Positions 5,983-50,832 of a stretch of DNA of 60,396 bases are shown here, piece after piece. Where the stretch lies: contig DASSJN010000039.1 of the NCBI GenBank assembly GCA_035691185.1, positions 1 through 60,396 on the forward strand. Direction: 5' to 3'. Both the position numbers and the translations under genes were made by a program. Position 1 is the first letter of the stretch. Every line of letters starts with the position of its first letter. Origin of the DNA: Steroidobacteraceae bacterium. GTDB lineage: Bacteria; Pseudomonadota; Gammaproteobacteria; Steroidobacterales; Steroidobacteraceae. The notes under the pieces were generated by a model, which was given only the letters and a program-made list of their open reading frames with translations, did not search any database and was not told where the DNA came from.

Positions 5983-6775
<793 letters not shown>

Positions 6776-13301: not shown

Positions 13302-16139
13302 TCAGTGTGCCTCGTCCCAGTTGCGACCGATTCCCACCTCGACTTTGAGCGGCACGTTGAGCTGGGCGGCCGTCGTCATGTGGCCGCGCAGGTGGGCCAC
13401 GACGTCCGGGGCGCGGTCCTCGGCCACTTCCAGTACCAGCTCGTCATGCACCTGCATGAGCAGCCGGGCGTGCGGAATGCCGGCGAGCCAGCGGTGCACT
13501 TCGATCATGGCGCGCTTGATGATGTCCGCCGCCGTGCCCTGCATGGGCGCGTTGATCGCGCTTCGCTCGGCATAGGAACGCAAGGCCTGGTTGCGCGACC
13601 GGATCTCGGGCAGGTACAGCCGACGCCCGAAGACCGTCTCGACGAACCCCTGTTCGCGGGCCATCTGCCGGGTTTCGTCCATGTAGCGCCTGACACCCGG
13701 GTAGCGCTTGAAGTACAGCTCGACGTACTGCTGCGCCGCCCCGCGCTCGATGCCGAGCTGCCGGGCGAGCCCGAAGGCGGACATGCCGTAGATGAGGCCG
13801 AAATTGATCGCCTTGGCGGCGCGGCGCTGGTCGGCCGTCACTCGCTCGAGCGAGCCGACGCCGAAGACCTCGGCAGCCGTCGCCTGGTGGATGTCGCGGT
13901 CCGACGCAAAGGCCTCCAGGAGCCCGGCGTCGCCGGAGAGGTGGGCCATGATCCGCAGCTCGATCTGCGAATAATCCGCGGCAATCAGCACGTGTCCGGA
14001 CGGCGCCAGGAACGCCTGGCGGATCCGCCGGCCTTCGGGCGTGCGGATCGGGATGTTCTGCAGGTTCGGGTCCGTCGACGACAGTCGGCCGGTCGCAGCG
14101 ACGGCCTGGTGGTACGAAGTGTGGACGCGGCCGGTACGCGGATTGATCTGCTCCGGCAGCCGGTCCGTGTAGGTCGAGCGCAGCTTGGCGAGCCCGCGGT
14201 AATCCATGATCACCCGCGGCAGTTCGAACTCCTCGGCCAGTTCCTCCAGCACGTCCTCGGCCGTCGATGGATCGCCGGACGGCGTCTTGCGCTTGACGGG
14301 CAGCCCGAGTTCGCCGAACAGGACTTCACGCAACTGCTTGGGCGATTCGACGTTGAACGGATGGCCCGCGATCTCGTGCGCGCGTTTTTCCAGCTCGACC
14401 AGTCCCCTCGACAGCTCCTGGCTCTGGCGCTTGAGCATCTGGGCATCGACCAGTACGCCGCAGTGCTCCATGTCGAGCAGCACCGGCACGAGCGGTTGCT
14501 CGATCTCCGTGTACAGGCGCACGAGACCCGGCGTGCGCTCGAGTCGTGGCCAGAGCGCACGGTGCAGCCGCAGCGCGACGTCGGCATCCTCGGCGGAATA
14601 CTCCGCGGCGCCCTCCACCGGCACGTCGTTGAACGCGAGTTGGCGCGTTCCCTTGCCGACCAGGTCCTCGTAATGGATCGTCTGGACGCCGAGATAGAGT
14701 CGCGCCGTCGAATCGAGGTCGTGACGGGTCGCGACGCTGTTGAGCACGTACGACTCGAGCATCGCGTCGAAACGCATGCCGCGCAGCTCGATGCCGTGGT
14801 TGCGCAGCACGTGTGCGTCGTACTTGAGGTGATGGCCGACCTTGGCACGAACGGGGTCCTCGAGCAGCGGTGTGAGCAGCCGCAGCACTTCCGCGCGGTT
14901 CAGCTGCTCGGGCGCACCGGGGTAGGTGTGCGCGAGCGGGACGTACGCCGCGTGCCCCACCTCGACGGCGAACGAGACCCCGACGATCTCCGCCTGCATG
15001 TAATCGAGCGAACTGGTCTCGGTGTCGAACGAGACCAGCTCGGCGTTGCGCAACACCTCGAGCCAGCGGTTGAAATGGTCCGGCGCCAGGACGATCTCGT
15101 AGTTGCGCCCCGGCGCCCACCCCGCTGAGGTCGGCGCGACCGCTCCGGGCACGTCTGCCGCGCCGGCAGGAGAGGCCGGCGGAAAGCCGGGTGAGGGGTG
15201 TCCCTCCCGAGGGAACTCACCGCGCGAAAGGTCAACCCCGATACCCTCACCCGGACTCCGTCCGACCGCGGCCGTCTCCGTGGGAGAGGTGTCGAGGCCC
15301 TTGAGCAGGGAACGCAGCTCGAGCCGCATGTAGAGCTCGCGCAGTCGGGCGGTGTCGGGCGGGCGGCGTTGCAGATCCTGCGGGCCGATCGGCAGCTCGC
15401 AGTCGCAGCGGATCCTCGCCAGCTGGCGTGAAAGCGCGAGGTCCGCCTGCGAGACGCGCAGGCTCTCGCCGACCTTGCCTTCGATCTCGTGCTGGTGCGC
15501 GAGCAGGTTGTCGAGCGTGACGTAGTGGTCCAGCCACCTGGCCGCCGTCTTGGGCCCGACCTTCGGCACGCCCGGGATGTTGTCGGAGCTGTCGCCGACG
15601 AGCGCGAGGTAGTCGACGATCTGCTCCGGGTAGACGTCGAACTTGATCTTCACGCCTGCCCGGTCGAGCGACGAGTTCGTCATCGTGTTGACCAGCGTGA
15701 TGCGCGCCGTGACGAGCTGCGCCATGTCCTTGTCGCCGGTCGAGATCAGCACGCGCTGGCCGCCCGCGGCTGCGCGCTGCGCGAGCGTGCCGATCACGTC
15801 GTCGGCTTCGACGCCCGGGATACGCAGCAGCGGCAGCCCGAGCGCCTCCACCGCCGCGATCAGGGGCTCGATCTGCGCACGCAGGTCGTCGGGCATCGCC
15901 GGGCGGTGGGCCTTGTACTCGGCGAACAGGTCGTCGCGGAACGTCTTGCCGGGCGCATCGAACACCACCGCGACGTGCTGGGGGTTCTGCTCGCGCAGCA
16001 TGCGATGGAGCATGTTGAGCACGCCGAGCACGGCACCCGTGGGTTCGCCCCGCGAGTTCGTCAGGGGCGGCAGGGCGTGGAAGGCCCGGTACAGGTACGA
16101 CGAGCCGTCGACGAGGACGAGCGTGTCCTGTTCAACCAC
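13302..16139 (-). CDS. polA: DNA polymerase I
   Basis: 945 aa. 5'-nuclease N-terminus LVLVDGSSYLYRAF, a 3'-5' exonuclease domain (SFDTETSSLD), and polymerase motifs DYSQIELR, RRAAKAINFGLIYG and QVHDELV. GTG start. Confidence 0.95.
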   Translation of the reverse strand: MVEQDTLVLVDGSSYLYRAFHALPPLTNSRGEPTGAVLGVLNMLHRMLREQNPQHVAVVFDAPGKTFRDDLFAEYKAHRPAMPDDLRAQIEPLIAAVEALGLPLLRIPGVEADDVIGTLAQRAAAGGQRVLISTGDKDMAQLVTARITLVNTMTNSSLDRAGVKIKFDVYPEQIVDYLALVGDSSDNIPGVPKVGPKTAARWLDHYVTLDNLLAHQHEIEGKVGESLRVSQADLALSRQLARIRCDCELPIGPQDLQRRPPDTARLRELYMRLELRSLLKGLDTSPTETAAVGRSPGEGIGVDLSRGEFPREGHPSPGFPPASPAGAADVPGAVAPTSAGWAPGRNYEIVLAPDHFNRWLEVLRNAELVSFDTETSSLDYMQAEIVGVSFAVEVGHAAYVPLAHTYPGAPEQLNRAEVLRLLTPLLEDPVRAKVGHHLKYDAHVLRNHGIELRGMRFDAMLESYVLNSVATRHDLDSTARLYLGVQTIHYEDLVGKGTRQLAFNDVPVEGAAEYSAEDADVALRLHRALWPRLERTPGLVRLYTEIEQPLVPVLLDMEHCGVLVDAQMLKRQSQELSRGLVELEKRAHEIAGHPFNVESPKQLREVLFGELGLPVKRKTPSGDPSTAEDVLEELAEEFELPRVIMDYRGLAKLRSTYTDRLPEQINPRTGRVHTSYHQAVAATGRLSSTDPNLQNIPIRTPEGRRIRQAFLAPSGHVLIAADYSQIELRIMAHLSGDAGLLEAFASDRDIHQATAAEVFGVGSLERVTADQRRAAKAINFGLIYGMSAFGLARQLGIERGAAQQYVELYFKRYPGVRRYMDETRQMAREQGFVETVFGRRLYLPEIRSRNQALRSYAERSAINAPMQGTAADIIKRAMIEVHRWLAGIPHARLLMQVHDELVLEVAEDRAPDVVAHLRGHMTTAAQLNVPLKVEVGIGRNWDEAH

Positions 16140-46562: not shown

Positions 46563-47534
46563 TCAGCGAGGTGTCGGAACCCAGAGCTTCACGCCGGGCG
46601 TCTGACGCAGCGGCACGCTCGCGCCGGCGTCGTACCAGTGCTCGATCAACCGATACGACACCGACTGCGGGGGCGACAGCCCGGGAAAACCGGATGCGAT
46701 GTCCGCGCGCGTGAACCAGCGTACGTCCTCGAGTTCCTCGTCCGCCTTCGGCACCTGGTCGGCGCCGGCAGTGGCCATGAATCCGATCATCAGCGACGAC
46801 GGGAACGGCCAGGGCTGCGAGGAGTGGTAGTCGGCCTCGGCGATCCGTACGCCCGTCTCTTCGAACACCTCGCGCGCGACGGCGTCCTCGAGGCTTTCGC
46901 CGGGCTCGACGAACCCGGCGATGGTCGAGTAACGGCCTTCCGGCCAGGACGCCTGTCGACCGAGCAGCGCACGTTCGCCGTCGGTCACGAGCACGATGAT
47001 CGCGGGGTCGAGCCGGGGGAAATGGTCGATGGCGCAGTCGGCGTTGGTGCACTTCATGAGGTGTCCCGCGCTCGCGCTCGACGTCGGCGCGCCGCAGGCG
47101 CCGCAGAACCTGTGCCGCTGGCGCCAGTACAGCATTGCCCTCGCATAGGCGAGCACGCCTGCCTCGCTCGGGTCGAGCAACCCGCCCGCAAGACGCAGGT
47201 CCTCGAACTTCACTTCGGCGTCCCCGAAGTGTCGCAGCGCCGGTTCCGGTTGCTCGAACTCGACGGCGAAGTATGTTCTCGACCCCGCACACCCGAGCAG
47301 CACGGGCTCCCGCGCGGGCGTCTGCCGCTGGAATTGCGTGGCCGGGATGAAAGCGGCCGCGGGCCCTGTCGGTTCGCGTCGCAGGAGGTTGCGTGCTCGC
47401 CAGACGGGCACGATCCAGGTGTCGTCGCCGGCGAGTCGCGCCGCGATCCACGCGTCGTCTCGGCGCAGGTGCGCGATGCGATCGAGGTACGGGCCTGAAA
47501 AGACGTTCGGTGGGCGGGGCACGGCGGCGCGCAT
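46563..47534 (-). CDS. nudC: NAD(+) diphosphatase NudC
   Basis: Zinc ribbon CGACGAPTSSASAGHLMKCTNADC. Nudix box GFVEPGESLEDAVAREVFEETGV followed by SQPWPFPSSLM. ATG at 47534 within the longer track ORF. Confidence 0.85.
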   Translation of the reverse strand: MRAAVPRPPNVFSGPYLDRIAHLRRDDAWIAARLAGDDTWIVPVWRARNLLRREPTGPAAAFIPATQFQRQTPAREPVLLGCAGSRTYFAVEFEQPEPALRHFGDAEVKFEDLRLAGGLLDPSEAGVLAYARAMLYWRQRHRFCGACGAPTSSASAGHLMKCTNADCAIDHFPRLDPAIIVLVTDGERALLGRQASWPEGRYSTIAGFVEPGESLEDAVAREVFEETGVRIAEADYHSSQPWPFPSSLMIGFMATAGADQVPKADEELEDVRWFTRADIASGFPGLSPPQSVSYRLIEHWYDAGASVPLRQTPGVKLWVPTPR

Positions 47535-47605
47535 GACGGCAGAACACGCAGTGTAGCCAACTTCTGCAGGGTCGCGCGGACCCCCGGGGCGCCGCGGGCA
47601 GTCCG

Positions 47606-48154
47606 CTAGAAACCTCCGTCGAACAGCCCGCGCCTGCACGTCGGGCAGCTGTCCGGCAGGATCTCGAGCGTGTCGCGGACCCAGAGCGCGTTGCAGCCCG
47701 GGCAGTTGGCGAGCACGTATTCGTCGTCGCGGCAGAACACCTGCCAGAGGTGCCAGGCATGCTCGACGCTCACGTGCGGCTTCGGCCAGAGGCCGAGGAA
47801 CGTTTCGTAGACGTCGCAGAAGAGCGAGACCTCGACGATGTCGGGACGAAAGCCGTGCAGATGGGGGTGCAGAAGCCCGCACCGGAGCAGCAACGAGCCG
47901 AGCGTGGCGGCCTCCTGTTCGTGCTCGAGCGAGCGGCGGAAGAACGCCATCTGGCGCGGTGACTTGCCGCGGTGCCGGCGTACGGTATTCGTGGCGTTCG
48001 CACCGAAATAATCGCGGTATATGCGCCGGATCCGGTCGTCGGATAATTGCGTCGCATCCCGGATGGTGCGCGTGCGGGCCTCCAGTCCGATCAGTCGGTG
48101 GGCCAGACCCAGCCGGAGCCGATCCCGGTCGTAGCGGCTGTCCGTGATCCGCAT
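47606..48154 (-). CDS. FlhC-like zinc-ribbon transcriptional regulator
   Basis: LIGLEARTRTIRDATQLSDDRIRRIYRDYFG parallels the FlhC sequence [31 protein letters not shown]. C-terminal Cys4 (CPGC...CPTC). The likely start is MRITDS at 48154, with AGGGA upstream; the track ORF extends to 48205. Confidence 0.65.
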   Translation of the reverse strand: MRITDSRYDRDRLRLGLAHRLIGLEARTRTIRDATQLSDDRIRRIYRDYFGANATNTVRRHRGKSPRQMAFFRRSLEHEQEAATLGSLLLRCGLLHPHLHGFRPDIVEVSLFCDVYETFLGLWPKPHVSVEHAWHLWQVFCRDDEYVLANCPGCNALWVRDTLEILPDSCPTCRRGLFDGGF

Positions 48155-48182
48155 GACGCCGTCCCTAATTTGGCCTCTTCGG

Positions 48183-48250
48183 CATATATGGTCTAACTGG
48201 ACCATATATGGCAGTCTATAACTATATTTGGTCCGTCAGGACCATATATG
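48183..48250. promoter_or_regulatory. Two 28-bp palindromic operator-like units in an AT-rich divergent promoter
   Basis: Unit A is CATATATGGTC-TAACTG-GACCATATATG (48183..48210). Unit B is TATATTTGGTC-CGTCAG-GACCATATATG (48223..48250). The offset is exactly 40 bp. Confidence 0.6.
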
Positions 48251-48973
48251 AACGAGGTGTCCGCCATGGCCGACCGACCGTCCGCAGCCCTGCACCCCGG
48301 CTTCCATCAAGGGAATCTGCTTAACGTCGCGGTGCGACGAGAAATCGCCGACCTCAACCGCCTGTTCCTCGAACGAGCGCTCGACCCGGACGAAGGCCTC
48401 CACGACTGGTTTCGCCTGCCCTGCCGGGCGCTGGAGCGGTTGGCGGCGGCCGGCTCCGAGACCTGGGAACGGGCGGCGCAATGGCCCATGGCGCTGTTCG
48501 AGCTTCGGTTGCCGGGGGCCGGCCTCGGAGACAGCGACGTTCACACCGTCGCCGATCGGCCGCTCCCCGTCGTGGGCGAAGGGTCGCGGACCGAGGCACG
48601 GCGGGCCTTCGGCGTGACCGCGCTCGGCGTGGTCCGTCGGCTCGCGGAGGGGGTCCCGCTCGCCTCGCGCATCGCATTCGGCCTGGAAGGCCGTGTCGAG
48701 GCGCGGCTCTCGGCCATGACCTTGTCCGAGTCCTACCGTGTCGCGGCCTGGCCGGGCCTCATACGGCCTCGCTGGAGCGAGGACGATCGTTACTGGATGC
48801 TGCTGGCCGAAGCCGCCACGCGCGGCGACGGTGTGCACTGGGCATACACGGCCGGCCTGTGCCTGCTGGCCAGGTGCGAACGCCAGCCCCCGGCCGTGGC
48901 CTACAGCGTGCGGCGCGCGCCGCGGTCCGCACATCGCCGGTCCGGGGCTGCGGGCCCGGAGGTTCCTTGCTGA
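48248..48973 (+). CDS. Hypothetical protein with FlhD-like N-terminal region
   Basis: IADLNRLFLERALDPDEGLHDWFRLPCRALERLAAAGSETWERAAQWPMALFELRL aligns by eye with FlhD IYDINLSYLLLAQRL...MFRLG...[24 protein letters not shown]. An alternative ATG at 48266 has GAGG upstream. The C-terminal roughly 140 aa are unassigned. Confidence 0.4.
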   Translation: MNEVSAMADRPSAALHPGFHQGNLLNVAVRREIADLNRLFLERALDPDEGLHDWFRLPCRALERLAAAGSETWERAAQWPMALFELRLPGAGLGDSDVHTVADRPLPVVGEGSRTEARRAFGVTALGVVRRLAEGVPLASRIAFGLEGRVEARLSAMTLSESYRVAAWPGLIRPRWSEDDRYWMLLAEAATRGDGVHWAYTAGLCLLARCERQPPAVAYSVRRAPRSAHRRSGAAGPEVPC

Positions 48974-49027
48974 CGCGGGGGGCGCAGCTTACCCTTTGCG
49001 CCCCTTGTTGCCCGGTCCACATCGTCC

Positions 49028-49987
49028 ATGAAGGCCCTGTCGCTGCGCCAGCTGACCAAGAGGTACCGCAACGGCGTGCAGGCCTTGAAGGGCATCGACC
49101 TCGACGTCGAGGACGGCGATTTCTTCGCGCTGCTCGGGCCCAACGGTGCCGGCAAGTCGACGACGATCGGGATCGTGTCGTCACTGGTCAACAAGACCGG
49201 GGGCACGGTCAGCGTGTTCGGGCACGACATCGACCGCGACCTCGAGGCCGCGAAGTCGTGCCTCGGCGTCGTACCGCAGGAAATCAATTTCAACCAGTTC
49301 GAGAAGGTCTCGACCATCCTGCTGAACCAGGCGGGGTTCTACGGCATTCCGCGGGGCGTGGCACGCGGCCGCGTCGAGCACTGGCTCCGGCAGCTGCAGC
49401 TGTGGGACAAGCGTGACGCCGTTTCGCGCACGCTGTCGGGCGGCATGAAGCGTCGCCTGATGATCGCGCGCGCGCACGTGCACGAGCCGCAACTGCTGAT
49501 CCTCGACGAGCCGACCGCAGGCGTCGACATCGAAGTGCGCCGCTCGATGTGGGAGTTCCTGCGACGGATCAACGAACAGGGCACGACCATCATTCTGACC
49601 ACGCACTACCTCGAGGAGGCCGAGAGCCTCTGCCGACACATCGCGATCATCGACGAGGGACGCATCATCGAGAACGACCGGATGTCGACCGTGCTGCGCA
49701 AGCTGCACACCGAGATTTTCGTTCTGAACCTGCGCGAGCCGCTGCACCAGGTGCCGGCGCTGCCCGGGTACCGGCTCGCGCAGGTCGACGAGACGACGCT
49801 CGAGATCGAGGTCAACAAGGAGCAGAACCTCAACGGCATCTTCGCCGCGCTGTCGGCCGCGGGCGTCGAGGTGCTGAGCATGCGCAACAAGGCGAACCGA
49901 CTCGAGGAACTGTTCCTGCGCCTGGTGGAGGGCCGCGACGTGGGCAGCGGCCAGGCCCTGCGCGCGGACGGAACGGTCCGGCCATGA
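49028..49987 (+). CDS. ABC transporter ATP-binding protein (ABC-2/YadG-like)
   Basis: Walker A GPNGAGKST, signature LSGGMKRR, and Walker B LLILDEPT. Confidence 0.9.
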   Translation: MKALSLRQLTKRYRNGVQALKGIDLDVEDGDFFALLGPNGAGKSTTIGIVSSLVNKTGGTVSVFGHDIDRDLEAAKSCLGVVPQEINFNQFEKVSTILLNQAGFYGIPRGVARGRVEHWLRQLQLWDKRDAVSRTLSGGMKRRLMIARAHVHEPQLLILDEPTAGVDIEVRRSMWEFLRRINEQGTTIILTTHYLEEAESLCRHIAIIDEGRIIENDRMSTVLRKLHTEIFVLNLREPLHQVPALPGYRLAQVDETTLEIEVNKEQNLNGIFAALSAAGVEVLSMRNKANRLEELFLRLVEGRDVGSGQALRADGTVRP

Positions 49988-50832
49988 ACGATTCACCGCA
50001 TTCGACCGCGACGCCCGGGGTGTCGGCCGGTGGCCACGCCGCCGCGACGAGCCGCAGCCAGATGCGACGCGCGCGGCGCATCGGCTTCACGACGATCGTG
50101 CTGCGCGAGTTCAGCCGGATCATCCGCATCTGGGGTCAGACGATCGTCCCGCCCGCGATCACGGCGACGCTGTACTTCATCATCTTCGGCAGCCTGATCG
50201 GCCAGCGCATCGGCCAGATGGGCGGCTTCAGCTACATGCAGTACATCGCGCCGGGGCTGATCATGATGTCGGTGATCACGAACAGCTACGGCAACGTGGT
50301 CTCGTCGTTCTTCGGCGCGAAATTCGGCCGCCACATCGAGGAACTGCTCGTTTCGCCGCTGCCGAACTGGCTGATCGTGCTCGGCTACGTCGTGGGCGGC
50401 GTGCTGCGCGGGCTGCTCGTCGGGCTCGTCGTGACGATCATCGCGCTGTTCTTCACGCACCTGCACGTCGAGCACCTGTTCTCGGTGATGGCAGCGGTGC
50501 TGCTCACCTCGGTCGTGTTCGCGCTCGGCGGGTTCATCAACGCCGTGTTCGCGAAGAATTTCGACCAGATCTCGTTCGTGCCGACGTTCATCCTGACGCC
50601 GATGACCTACCTCGGCGGCGTCTTCTACTCGATCGCGATGCTGCCCGAGTGGGCGCAGCAGGTGTCGAAGGCGAACCCGATCCTGTACATGGTCAACGCG
50701 TTCCGGTTCGGCTTCCTCGGGCACTCGGACGTCGACGTCGGGTTCTCGTTCGCGATCATGATCGCGGCGACGCTCCTGCTGTTCGCCGTGTGCGTGTGGC
50801 TGATGAACAAGGGAACGGGAACGAGGGAATAG
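49984..50832 (+). CDS. ABC-2 type transporter permease (YadH-like)
   Basis: Six predicted TM segments and typical ABC-2 sequence (REFSRIIRIWGQTIVPP...NPILYMVNAFRFGFLG). ATGA overlap with the ATPase gene. Confidence 0.85.
   Translation: MNDSPHSTATPGVSAGGHAAATSRSQMRRARRIGFTTIVLREFSRIIRIWGQTIVPPAITATLYFIIFGSLIGQRIGQMGGFSYMQYIAPGLIMMSVITNSYGNVVSSFFGAKFGRHIEELLVSPLPNWLIVLGYVVGGVLRGLLVGLVVTIIALFFTHLHVEHLFSVMAAVLLTSVVFALGGFINAVFAKNFDQISFVPTFILTPMTYLGGVFYSIAMLPEWAQQVSKANPILYMVNAFRFGFLGHSDVDVGFSFAIMIAATLLLFAVCVWLMNKGTGTRE

Follow-up and report, generated by a model that had tools for sequence, protein, structure and literature searches.

Divergent FlhC-like and FlhD-like genes around two conserved palindromes in the core chromosome of Steroidobacteraceae and related Gammaproteobacteria

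Described FlhDC-type systems and the gene pair

Regulators of the FlhDC family are, to our knowledge, described only for the control of flagella and for the transfer of SXT/R391, IncC, SGI1 and ICEclc elements. A gene pair resembling both of their subunits, here called A (FlhC-like) and B (FlhD-like), was analysed in a contig of a Steroidobacteraceae bacterium (GenBank assembly GCA_035691185.1, contig DASSJN010000039.1; the whole stretch of 60,396 nucleotides (nt) is hereafter the window). The two open reading frames (ORFs) lie back to back, A on the minus and B on the plus strand, on either side of an AT-rich gap of 111 nt (48155-48265), and both show a coding-type GC content at third codon positions (GC3 of 0.83-0.84) in a window of 68.6% GC.

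In the flagellar FlhD4C2 complex (E. coli, 2AVU; C. necator, 8J56), FlhD is a single domain of 116 amino acids (aa) that dimerises, the DNA it targets is long and two-fold symmetric, and flhDC form a D-then-C operon beside motAB. The AcaCD activator of IncA/IncC plasmids, related to SetCD of SXT/R391 and to the SGI1 flhDC homologue, joins an FlhC-like subunit of ~183 aa carrying a C-terminal Cys cluster to AcaD, of ~200 aa. AcaC and AcaD (22.8 kDa) co-purify, are both required for activity and bear only a weak resemblance to Pfam FlhC and FlhD (PMC4207636). The sites bound by AcaCD are long and built around a palindrome, with the core motif GCCCAAAATGGGC (PMC5058578). It is a class II activator of many tra promoters, and its own co-directional genes, acaD-acaC, lie on a conjugative plasmid in an operon with acr1 under Acr1/Acr2 control. 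The activator BisDC of the integrative and conjugative element (ICE) ICEclc has two components, one of them FlhC-like, and feeds back positively on its own expression; BisD joins a ParB-like CTP clamp to an activator domain, and BisC is without the zinc site and carries an additional dimerisation domain at its N-terminus (bioRxiv 10.1101/2024.09.16.613209).

The pair analysed here combines features of these systems. As in FlhD4C2, A has the FlhC fold and zinc site, the C-terminal module of B shows homology to FlhD along almost its entire length, and the putative target DNA is long and two-fold symmetric; unlike FlhD, B carries two modules and a Cys/His tail in a single chain, and the genes are divergent in a non-flagellar context. 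B apparently shares with AcaD a tandem FlhD-like two-module layout, but the pair shows no tblastn similarity to AcaCD, carries ATATGGTC-N6-GACCATAT twice in place of the AcaCD core motif, and is divergent on the core chromosome, with sites seen only in its own promoter region. In contrast to BisDC, A keeps a Cys4 site and B is without the ParB part.

We consider it reasonably likely that A and B constitute a heteromeric regulator of FlhDC/AcaCD type, which would bind both intergenic palindromes and autoregulate. The pair has a fixed place in the core chromosome of Steroidobacteraceae, Woeseiaceae and related bacteria. What is new here is the divergent gene order, the fixed core-chromosome site and the dual palindrome with an invariant centre. 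The double length of the FlhD-like partner, which the initial annotation of this DNA had regarded as unusual, is not, since AcaD (202 aa) apparently has the same layout. No description of the A/B family was found in the literature, and close homologues of both proteins were all named 'hypothetical protein', bar one stray 'ribosomal protein S27E', in agreement with the annotation's proposal of an undescribed chromosomal branch.

Homology and fold of the two proteins

A is a distant, full-length homologue of FlhC. A profile of 34 A homologues matched FlhC chains of the PDB (8j56_C, E=1.2e-5; 2avu_E, E=1.7e-3) in two colinear stretches each, and hhalign aligned A with E. coli FlhC over 152 columns (residues 10-180 against 8-167; probability 85%, P=5.7e-6). 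The AlphaFold2 model of A reached a predicted local distance difference test score (pLDDT) of 82 and a predicted template modelling score (pTM) of 0.80. When this model was compared by Foldseek with 350,542 PDB chains, E<1e-3 was obtained only for three FlhC chains (2avu_E, 8j56_F and 8j56_C; E=1.5e-4 to 6.7e-4, probability 1.00, template modelling (TM) score 0.62-0.74, ~167 columns, 21-23% identity), and the first match that was not FlhC stood at E=0.75. The likeness to FlhC first noticed by eye is real, but it extends over the whole protein and not just its N-terminal helices. A stood at a similar distance from AcaC (hhalign P=1.4e-4, 171 columns).

The C-terminal Cys4 zinc ribbon was present as initially described (CPGC at residues 151-154, CPTC at 170-173); C151, C154, C170 and C173 were invariant in the 34 homologues and fell over the zinc ligands of E. 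coli FlhC in the hhalign alignment. All 34 homologues began at MRITD or MRLTD, and a 199-aa version of A starting at ATG 48205 was rejected on this basis. An invariant basic loop, RRxRGKSPRQM (residues 55-67, window 47954-47992), was modelled at low pLDDT (51-59) and occupies the place of GSPPPKGMLPFS in FlhC; it is possibly a branch-specific segment contacting DNA or a partner.

B gave no match by sequence to Pfam, NCBIfam or PDB. An exhaustive HMMER search with B against 1.84 billion representatives returned only 214 clusters at E<=1e-3, and remote homology became visible only after this widening of the profile and by fold search. Full-length entries of the B family measured ~190-260 aa; shorter entries covered parts of the profile only, and none was like a stand-alone FlhD in size and coverage. 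The initial annotation gave B 241 aa. Its divergent plus-strand frame ending at 48973 stands, but translation most likely starts at ATG 48266, which yields 235 aa: a GAGG stands before this methionine, which at least 90% of homologues share. Residue numbers of B follow the 241-aa numbering.

In the AlphaFold2 model of B (pLDDT 76, pTM 0.71), a long helix, short helices and a strand occur twice, at residues 27-86 and 111-174, and the whole-chain pTM indicates that the two modelled halves pack together. The top PDB matches of this model in Foldseek were all FlhD chains (2avu_B, 1g8e, 8j56, 4es4 and 5hxg), with probabilities of 0.94-0.99, TMt of 0.64-0.80 and an E-value of only ~0.3, a level to be expected with a small domain. 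The two halves were then compared by hhalign, using a profile of 241 B sequences and a narrow FlhD profile built from near-identical enterobacterial FlhD (E. coli FlhD as query). The C-terminal half aligned with FlhD residues 8-102 (probability 80%, P=1.4e-5), the N-terminal half with FlhD residues 1-86 (45%, P=2.2e-4) and also with the C-terminal half of B itself (50%, P=1.7e-4), against P=0.017-0.87 for reversed-column and unrelated controls. Among distant members of the B family (alignment A3), 24 of 59 matched Pfam FlhD (best E=5.5e-7), and through its C-terminal half the A3 profile matched FlhD of C. necator (8j56_A, E=1.4e-10) and of E. coli (E=2.7e-6) in the PDB. B has FlhD homology and the FlhD fold, in probably two tandem modules. 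An FlhD-like module does lie at the N-terminus, where it was first proposed, but it is the weaker of the two, and the following stretch, described as ~140 aa of no recognisable family, holds the better FlhD domain.

AcaD, taken together with AcaC from the IncC plasmid pAR060302, offered the nearest counterpart to this layout; acaD is annotated there as 'hypothetical protein' (202 aa) and acaC as 'FlhC family transcriptional regulator' (183 aa). The matches were weak but agreed with one another: AcaD aligned with A3 over 186 columns (hhalign probability 44%, P=2.3e-4), and hidden Markov models (HMMs) of B scored 32.5 bits (B3.hmm) and 22.6 bits (B.hmm) on AcaD, with the halves cross-matched. 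Halves swapped in this way mark an internal repeat in AcaD as well as in B. With the FlhD profile, the match in AcaD covered residues 102-198. A tandem FlhD-like architecture of AcaD (positions 13425-14033 of the retrieved plasmid locus L207; NC_012692, 163424-164032) was not found stated in the literature consulted.

The C-terminal tail of B stands apart from both modules. In 120 close homologues, C205 was found in 120, C210 in 116, H229 in 114 and C241, the last residue, in 114; these residues are absent from distant members of the family, and the tail has low pLDDT. They constitute a candidate lineage-specific Cys3His metal or redox site (window 48860-48970), as judged from this pattern of conservation.

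A fixed site in the core chromosome

Relatives of A were sought with a degenerate pattern in 185,579 species genomes, and 558 species-level loci were obtained. The best 80 of these were retrieved (1.38 Mb in total, with +/-10 kb per genome inspected) and belong to metagenome-assembled genomes labelled Steroidobacteraceae, Woeseiaceae, Nevskiaceae or unclassified Gammaproteobacteria. The pair is part of the core chromosome at a fixed site and was syntenic in 80 of 80 related genomes. In nearly all of loci L002-L063, the order outward from B is ABC ATPase, ABC-2 permease, SRAP, sulfotransferase and EF-G-like gene, and outward from A it is nudC, TauE, DUF4126, TANGO2 and tamA, with occasional genes missing. 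Loci L064-L080, in which A is 40-48% identical, keep the core of this arrangement; B was missed there by tblastn, and with an HMM all of them proved to have a B-family ORF in divergent orientation immediately upstream of A (E=1e-21 to 1e-37).

Wherever upstream DNA was present, A and B were adjacent and divergent, in L002-L063 (by tblastn), in L064-L080 (by HMM) and in 36 metagenome loci. The divergent orientation described for the window therefore recurred in every related locus with upstream DNA, and the survey of its conservation that had been suggested found the pair in this arrangement in all 80 retrieved loci where that DNA exists. Three of three distant members (L203, L208 and L210) were also divergent pairs; L210 keeps A-nudC-TANGO2, and L203 and L208 have other neighbours. 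B evolves faster than A, with identities of 33-63% and 56-89%, respectively, in the same loci.

The known non-flagellar relatives of the pair are all on mobile elements and its D subunit resembles AcaD, which would suit a remnant or edge of an integrative or conjugative element that left an AcaCD/SetCD-like activator behind. We regard this origin as extremely improbable. The neighbours are the same in nearly all of L002-L063 and the core of the arrangement is kept in the branch with 40-48% identity; the GC content of the pair resembles that of its flanks, save for the intergenic dip. The pair had no match by tblastn in 72,556 plasmids, nor in PHROGs or PADLOC. Among the ~43 ORFs scanned over the 60-kb window there were no flagellar, mot, conjugation or type IV secretion system (T4SS), integrase or plasmid genes, as the initial annotation had stated, and its concern that the locus might be the edge of an integrative element or of a flagellar cluster is answered by the synteny. 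The sole tRNA gene of the window (6013-6086; Rfam tRNA, 71.4 bits) lies ~41 kb from the pair, with no integrase nearby. The window otherwise contains rsmB, ntrY-like, corA, cytochromes c, polA, acyl-CoA dehydrogenase, a resistance-nodulation-division (RND) pump, argH/F/D/G, argR, tamAB, the EF-G-like gene, an FGGY kinase and similar core genes.

That the pair is the diverged flagellar FlhDC of these bacteria, located away from the flagellar genes, appears very unlikely, although both subunits are present, some Steroidobacter species are motile, and a few of the more distant A homologues bear the JGI label 'Flagellar transcriptional activator (FlhC)'. A scored 21.9 against a cut-off of 216 on the NCBIfam FlhC equivalog (NF009365), the D subunit is of the two-module AcaD type and not a 116-aa FlhD, and the genes are divergent instead of forming a D-C operon in a window devoid of flagellar and mot genes. 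The consensus of the FlhD4C2 box is also unlike the palindromes of this locus. Moreover, Gammaproteobacteria of the Xanthomonas and Pseudomonas types use FleQ instead (PMC9927559).

Intergenic palindromes, putative autoregulation and flanking genes

Two copies of a 22-bp palindrome, the putative operators O_A and O_B, lie between the genes (Table 1). The motif CATATATGGTC-N6-GACCATATATG of the initial annotation is present at 48183-48210, where it encloses the first palindrome, and a second copy can be added to it, at 48226-48247. The window contained these 2 sites against 0.02 expected, and a search allowing up to 3 mismatches found no further site in its whole length. With the same tolerance, 128 of 129 sites in the 80 related loci fell between A and B, ~54 and ~94 nt upstream of the ATG of A; the 129th match was weak. 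The spacing of the two palindromes was exactly 40 bp in 93 pairs. Across 90 unique intergenic sequences carrying palindromes, the central TATAGACT was invariant, with an information content equal to that of the palindrome arms, and the consensus on the A strand read CTCC-A-ATATGGTCC-N4-GGACCATAT-ATGG-TTATAGACT-GCC-ATATGGTCC-N4-AGACCATAT-ATGGC...GGGGA...ATG(A). The conserved CTCC beside O_B is the reverse complement of GGAG, the ribosome-binding site of B. More diverged pairs had other intergenic sequences, some of them palindromic by eye (e.g., AATTTGGGAAA/TTTCCCAAATT, ATTTGG-N9-CCAAAT and AATTTGG...CCAAATT), which is consistent with an operator that evolved along with the pair. No Rfam match was found in the A-B intergenic region.

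A metagenome scan with the palindrome gave at least 120 matches. Of the 120 matches listed, 36 fell in A/B intergenic regions; the other 84 were without A or B and comprised low-GC chance matches, an unrelated high-GC element and isolated sites. The high-GC element (...GGAGCCTGCCGTGGATGTCCC[ATATGGTC-N6-GACCATAT]TGCCATCACCAGCGGTGACAAGTCGACCACC...) is longer, non-coding, conserved and distinct from the A/B region, and it was found at L173 6047-6068, L085 1692, L090 2048, L142 2579 and ~30 other loci among the matches listed. Its contigs (63-73% GC) are without an FlhC-like or B-family gene and gave no Rfam match; at L173 it lies in a ~1-kb gap beside a Glu/Leu/Phe/Val-dehydrogenase-like ORF. It is probably an actinobacterial operator or RNA. 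A lone perfect palindrome at L093 2158-2179, in an AT-rich gap between VirB11/TrbB-like ATPase and VirD4/TraG-like genes of a 72% GC contig without A or B, is probably a chance occurrence or the site of another regulator.

The palindromes could in principle serve a regulator that is unrelated to the pair and has its gene elsewhere, such as one of GntR/HutC type with GGTC...GACC cores, for which A and B would merely be targets. The identical 16 specified bases in ~30 high-GC contigs lacking A and B, among the matches listed, speak for this, since they imply that the sequence is not intrinsically tied to FlhC-like proteins. In lineages that bear A and B, however, the sites occur only between these genes, the intergenic repeats differ where A and B have diverged, and no other conserved regulator gene lies nearby; we therefore hold a foreign regulator to be rather improbable.

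The restriction of the operator copies found to the promoter region of A and B points first to autoregulation, here proposed for an A-B heteromer. One B chain would stand in for an FlhD dimer, such that an A2B2 particle could mimic FlhD4C2; a heteromer in which the D subunit is long has its precedent in AcaC and AcaD, which co-purify and are both needed. The complex would occupy both palindromes and so autoregulate A and B, possibly with cooperative binding, as the fixed 40-bp spacing corresponds to ~four helical turns. O_B ends 6 nt before the Shine-Dalgarno sequence of B, and therefore would fall within the B transcript or at its very beginning. The invariant TAGACT of the spacer is a candidate -10 element of a promoter of A (P_A), TAnnnT hexamers of this type recurring as a conserved -10-like element before nudC; if so, O_A would extend over the A transcript from ~+1 to +22, with O_B over the -35 region. 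Both placements would give a geometry that favours repression. An activator-dependent design is conceivable too, as a sigma-70 scan found no consensus promoter at the locus. Targets elsewhere in the genome probably exist.

Several observations weigh against such a heteromeric autoregulator. Pfam FlhC (PF05280) matched A only at residues 16-54, with 21.9 bits (E=1.7e-4) below the gathering score of 27, and Pfam FlhD (PF05247) matched neither B nor its 32 close homologues. The profile searches proposed in the initial annotation thus fell short of the curated Pfam and NCBIfam thresholds, although profile-profile and fold evidence places both proteins in the superfamily. Known complexes of the FlhDC family are activators at many promoters. 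A palindrome implies a symmetric dimer per site, with no simple fit to an FlhD4C2-like particle. The repression geometry relies on a guessed -10 element at a locus without a sigma-70 consensus. Finally, outside the pair's own promoter the palindrome was lacking in the inspected related loci, bar the one weak site: the search for further copies, meant to define a regulon, yielded a single weak addition in 1.38 Mb, and no regulon could be defined from the window, the related loci or the metagenome matches listed.

As an alternative, A alone could bind the palindromes as a homodimeric zinc-ribbon regulator, B being a modulator (for instance a sensor or anti-activator acting through its Cys3His tail) or the two being independent proteins that share a promoter region. 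The perfect dyad of the O_A-type operator suits a homodimer, across the loci compared B evolves far more quickly than A and has a lineage-specific Cys/His motif, and AlphaFold3 prediction of ICEclc BisD with BisC showed no robust interaction (bioRxiv 10.1101/2024.09.16.613209). Against it stand the FlhD fold of B, FlhD being known only as a partner of FlhC, the 100% co-occurrence of A and B over deep divergence and the AcaC/AcaD precedent (PMC4207636). We judge this arrangement unlikely, and retain the heteromer as the preferred reading.

The genes flanking the pair are, as initially annotated, nudC and an ABC-2 exporter, both supported by Pfam. nudC adjoins A in L210 and in the majority of the 80 loci, a few contigs ending before it, and the ABC ATPase and ABC-2 permease genes were syntenic wherever the flank was present. 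No canonical terminator was found between the pair and its flanking genes; GC-rich hairpins follow the stop codons of both A and B and were not significant (z ~-0.9). The idea of A-nudC and B-ABC operons was weakened by conserved -10-like elements before nudC and the ABC ATPase gene. Past the stop of A, a hexamer TA[ACG]A[CA]T occurred within 70 nt in 58 of 59 loci (98%) vs 1.6% in shuffles; in the gap before nudC (window 47535-47608) it takes the form TAGACT, TAAACT or TACACT, ~25-40 nt before the gene, and it overlaps the stop codon of A in 20 loci. Judging from this conservation, it is probably nudC's own promoter. Between the stop of B and the start of the ABC ATPase gene (48974-49027), a GC-rich hairpin, GGGGGGCGCA...TGCGCCCC, is followed by TTGTTG. 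The motif CATTAC[GC]CT occurred after B in 66% of related loci vs 0.8% in shuffles, and the element in this gap could be a weak terminator, a promoter of the ABC genes, or both. As promoter-like elements are conserved before nudC and the ABC genes, these genes probably have their own promoters, and would be at most partly co-controlled with the pair, by read-through. The pair may be an autonomous module with its other targets elsewhere.

Table 1. Positions of the gene pair, its domains, the intergenic elements and the adjoining genes in the window
Feature	Position	Strand	Description
Gene A	47606..48154	-	182 aa, distant FlhC homologue: N-terminal helical region, basic loop RRxRGKSPRQM, C-terminal Cys4 zinc ribbon
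Cys4 zinc ribbon of A (candidate metal site)	47636..47704	-	C151, C154, C170, C173
Operator O_A (putative)	48186..48207	.	Perfect 22-bp palindrome ATATGGTC-N6-GACCATAT, gene A side
Spacer core	48213..48222	.	Invariant; A strand GTTATAGACT, contains TAGACT; B strand TATAAC
Operator O_B (putative)	48226..48247	.	Second copy, ATTTGGTC-N6-GACCATAT, 1 mismatch, beside the Shine-Dalgarno sequence of B
Gene B	48266..48973	+	235 aa if read from the conserved start, 241 aa with ATG 48248; two FlhD-like modules and Cys/His tail
B N-terminal module	48305..48559	+	Residues ~20-104; weaker, truncated FlhD-like repeat
B C-terminal module	48560..48892	+	Residues ~105-215; clearer FlhD domain
B C-terminal tail	48893..48970	+	Near-invariant H229, terminal [DE][VI]PC-COOH
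nudC (NADH pyrophosphatase type)	46563..47534	-	Pfam NUDIX, NUDIX-like, Zn_ribbon_NUD; downstream of A
ABC ATPase	49028..49987	+	Pfam ABC_tran; downstream of B
ABC-2 permease	49984..50832	+	Pfam ABC2_membrane; downstream of the ABC ATPase gene

A more far-reaching proposal, which we hold as doubtful though worth stating, is that the pair is a widespread, vertically inherited FlhDC-type regulator in which an FlhD dimer became one chain through duplication and fusion of the gene, with metal or redox sensing through the Cys3His site and, in Steroidobacteraceae and Woeseiaceae, a chromosomal regulon that is neither flagellar nor conjugative and possibly includes the linked nudC-TANGO2 and ABC-2 exporter genes. 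If this is true, a family whose known members are all master switches of flagella or mobile elements would gain its first housekeeping representative. Nothing is overturned by these results, which are of interest to specialists in FlhDC/AcaCD regulation and give names to two protein families annotated only as hypothetical. They show a third branch of the FlhDC family, which has a fixed place in the core genome of Gammaproteobacteria abundant in soils and marine sediments and is distinguished by its gene layout, its conserved dual operator and a D subunit that is apparently a fused FlhD pair. This branch may offer a simple case for understanding how the FlhC/FlhD scaffold recognises DNA and how long subunits of the AcaD/SetD type are built.

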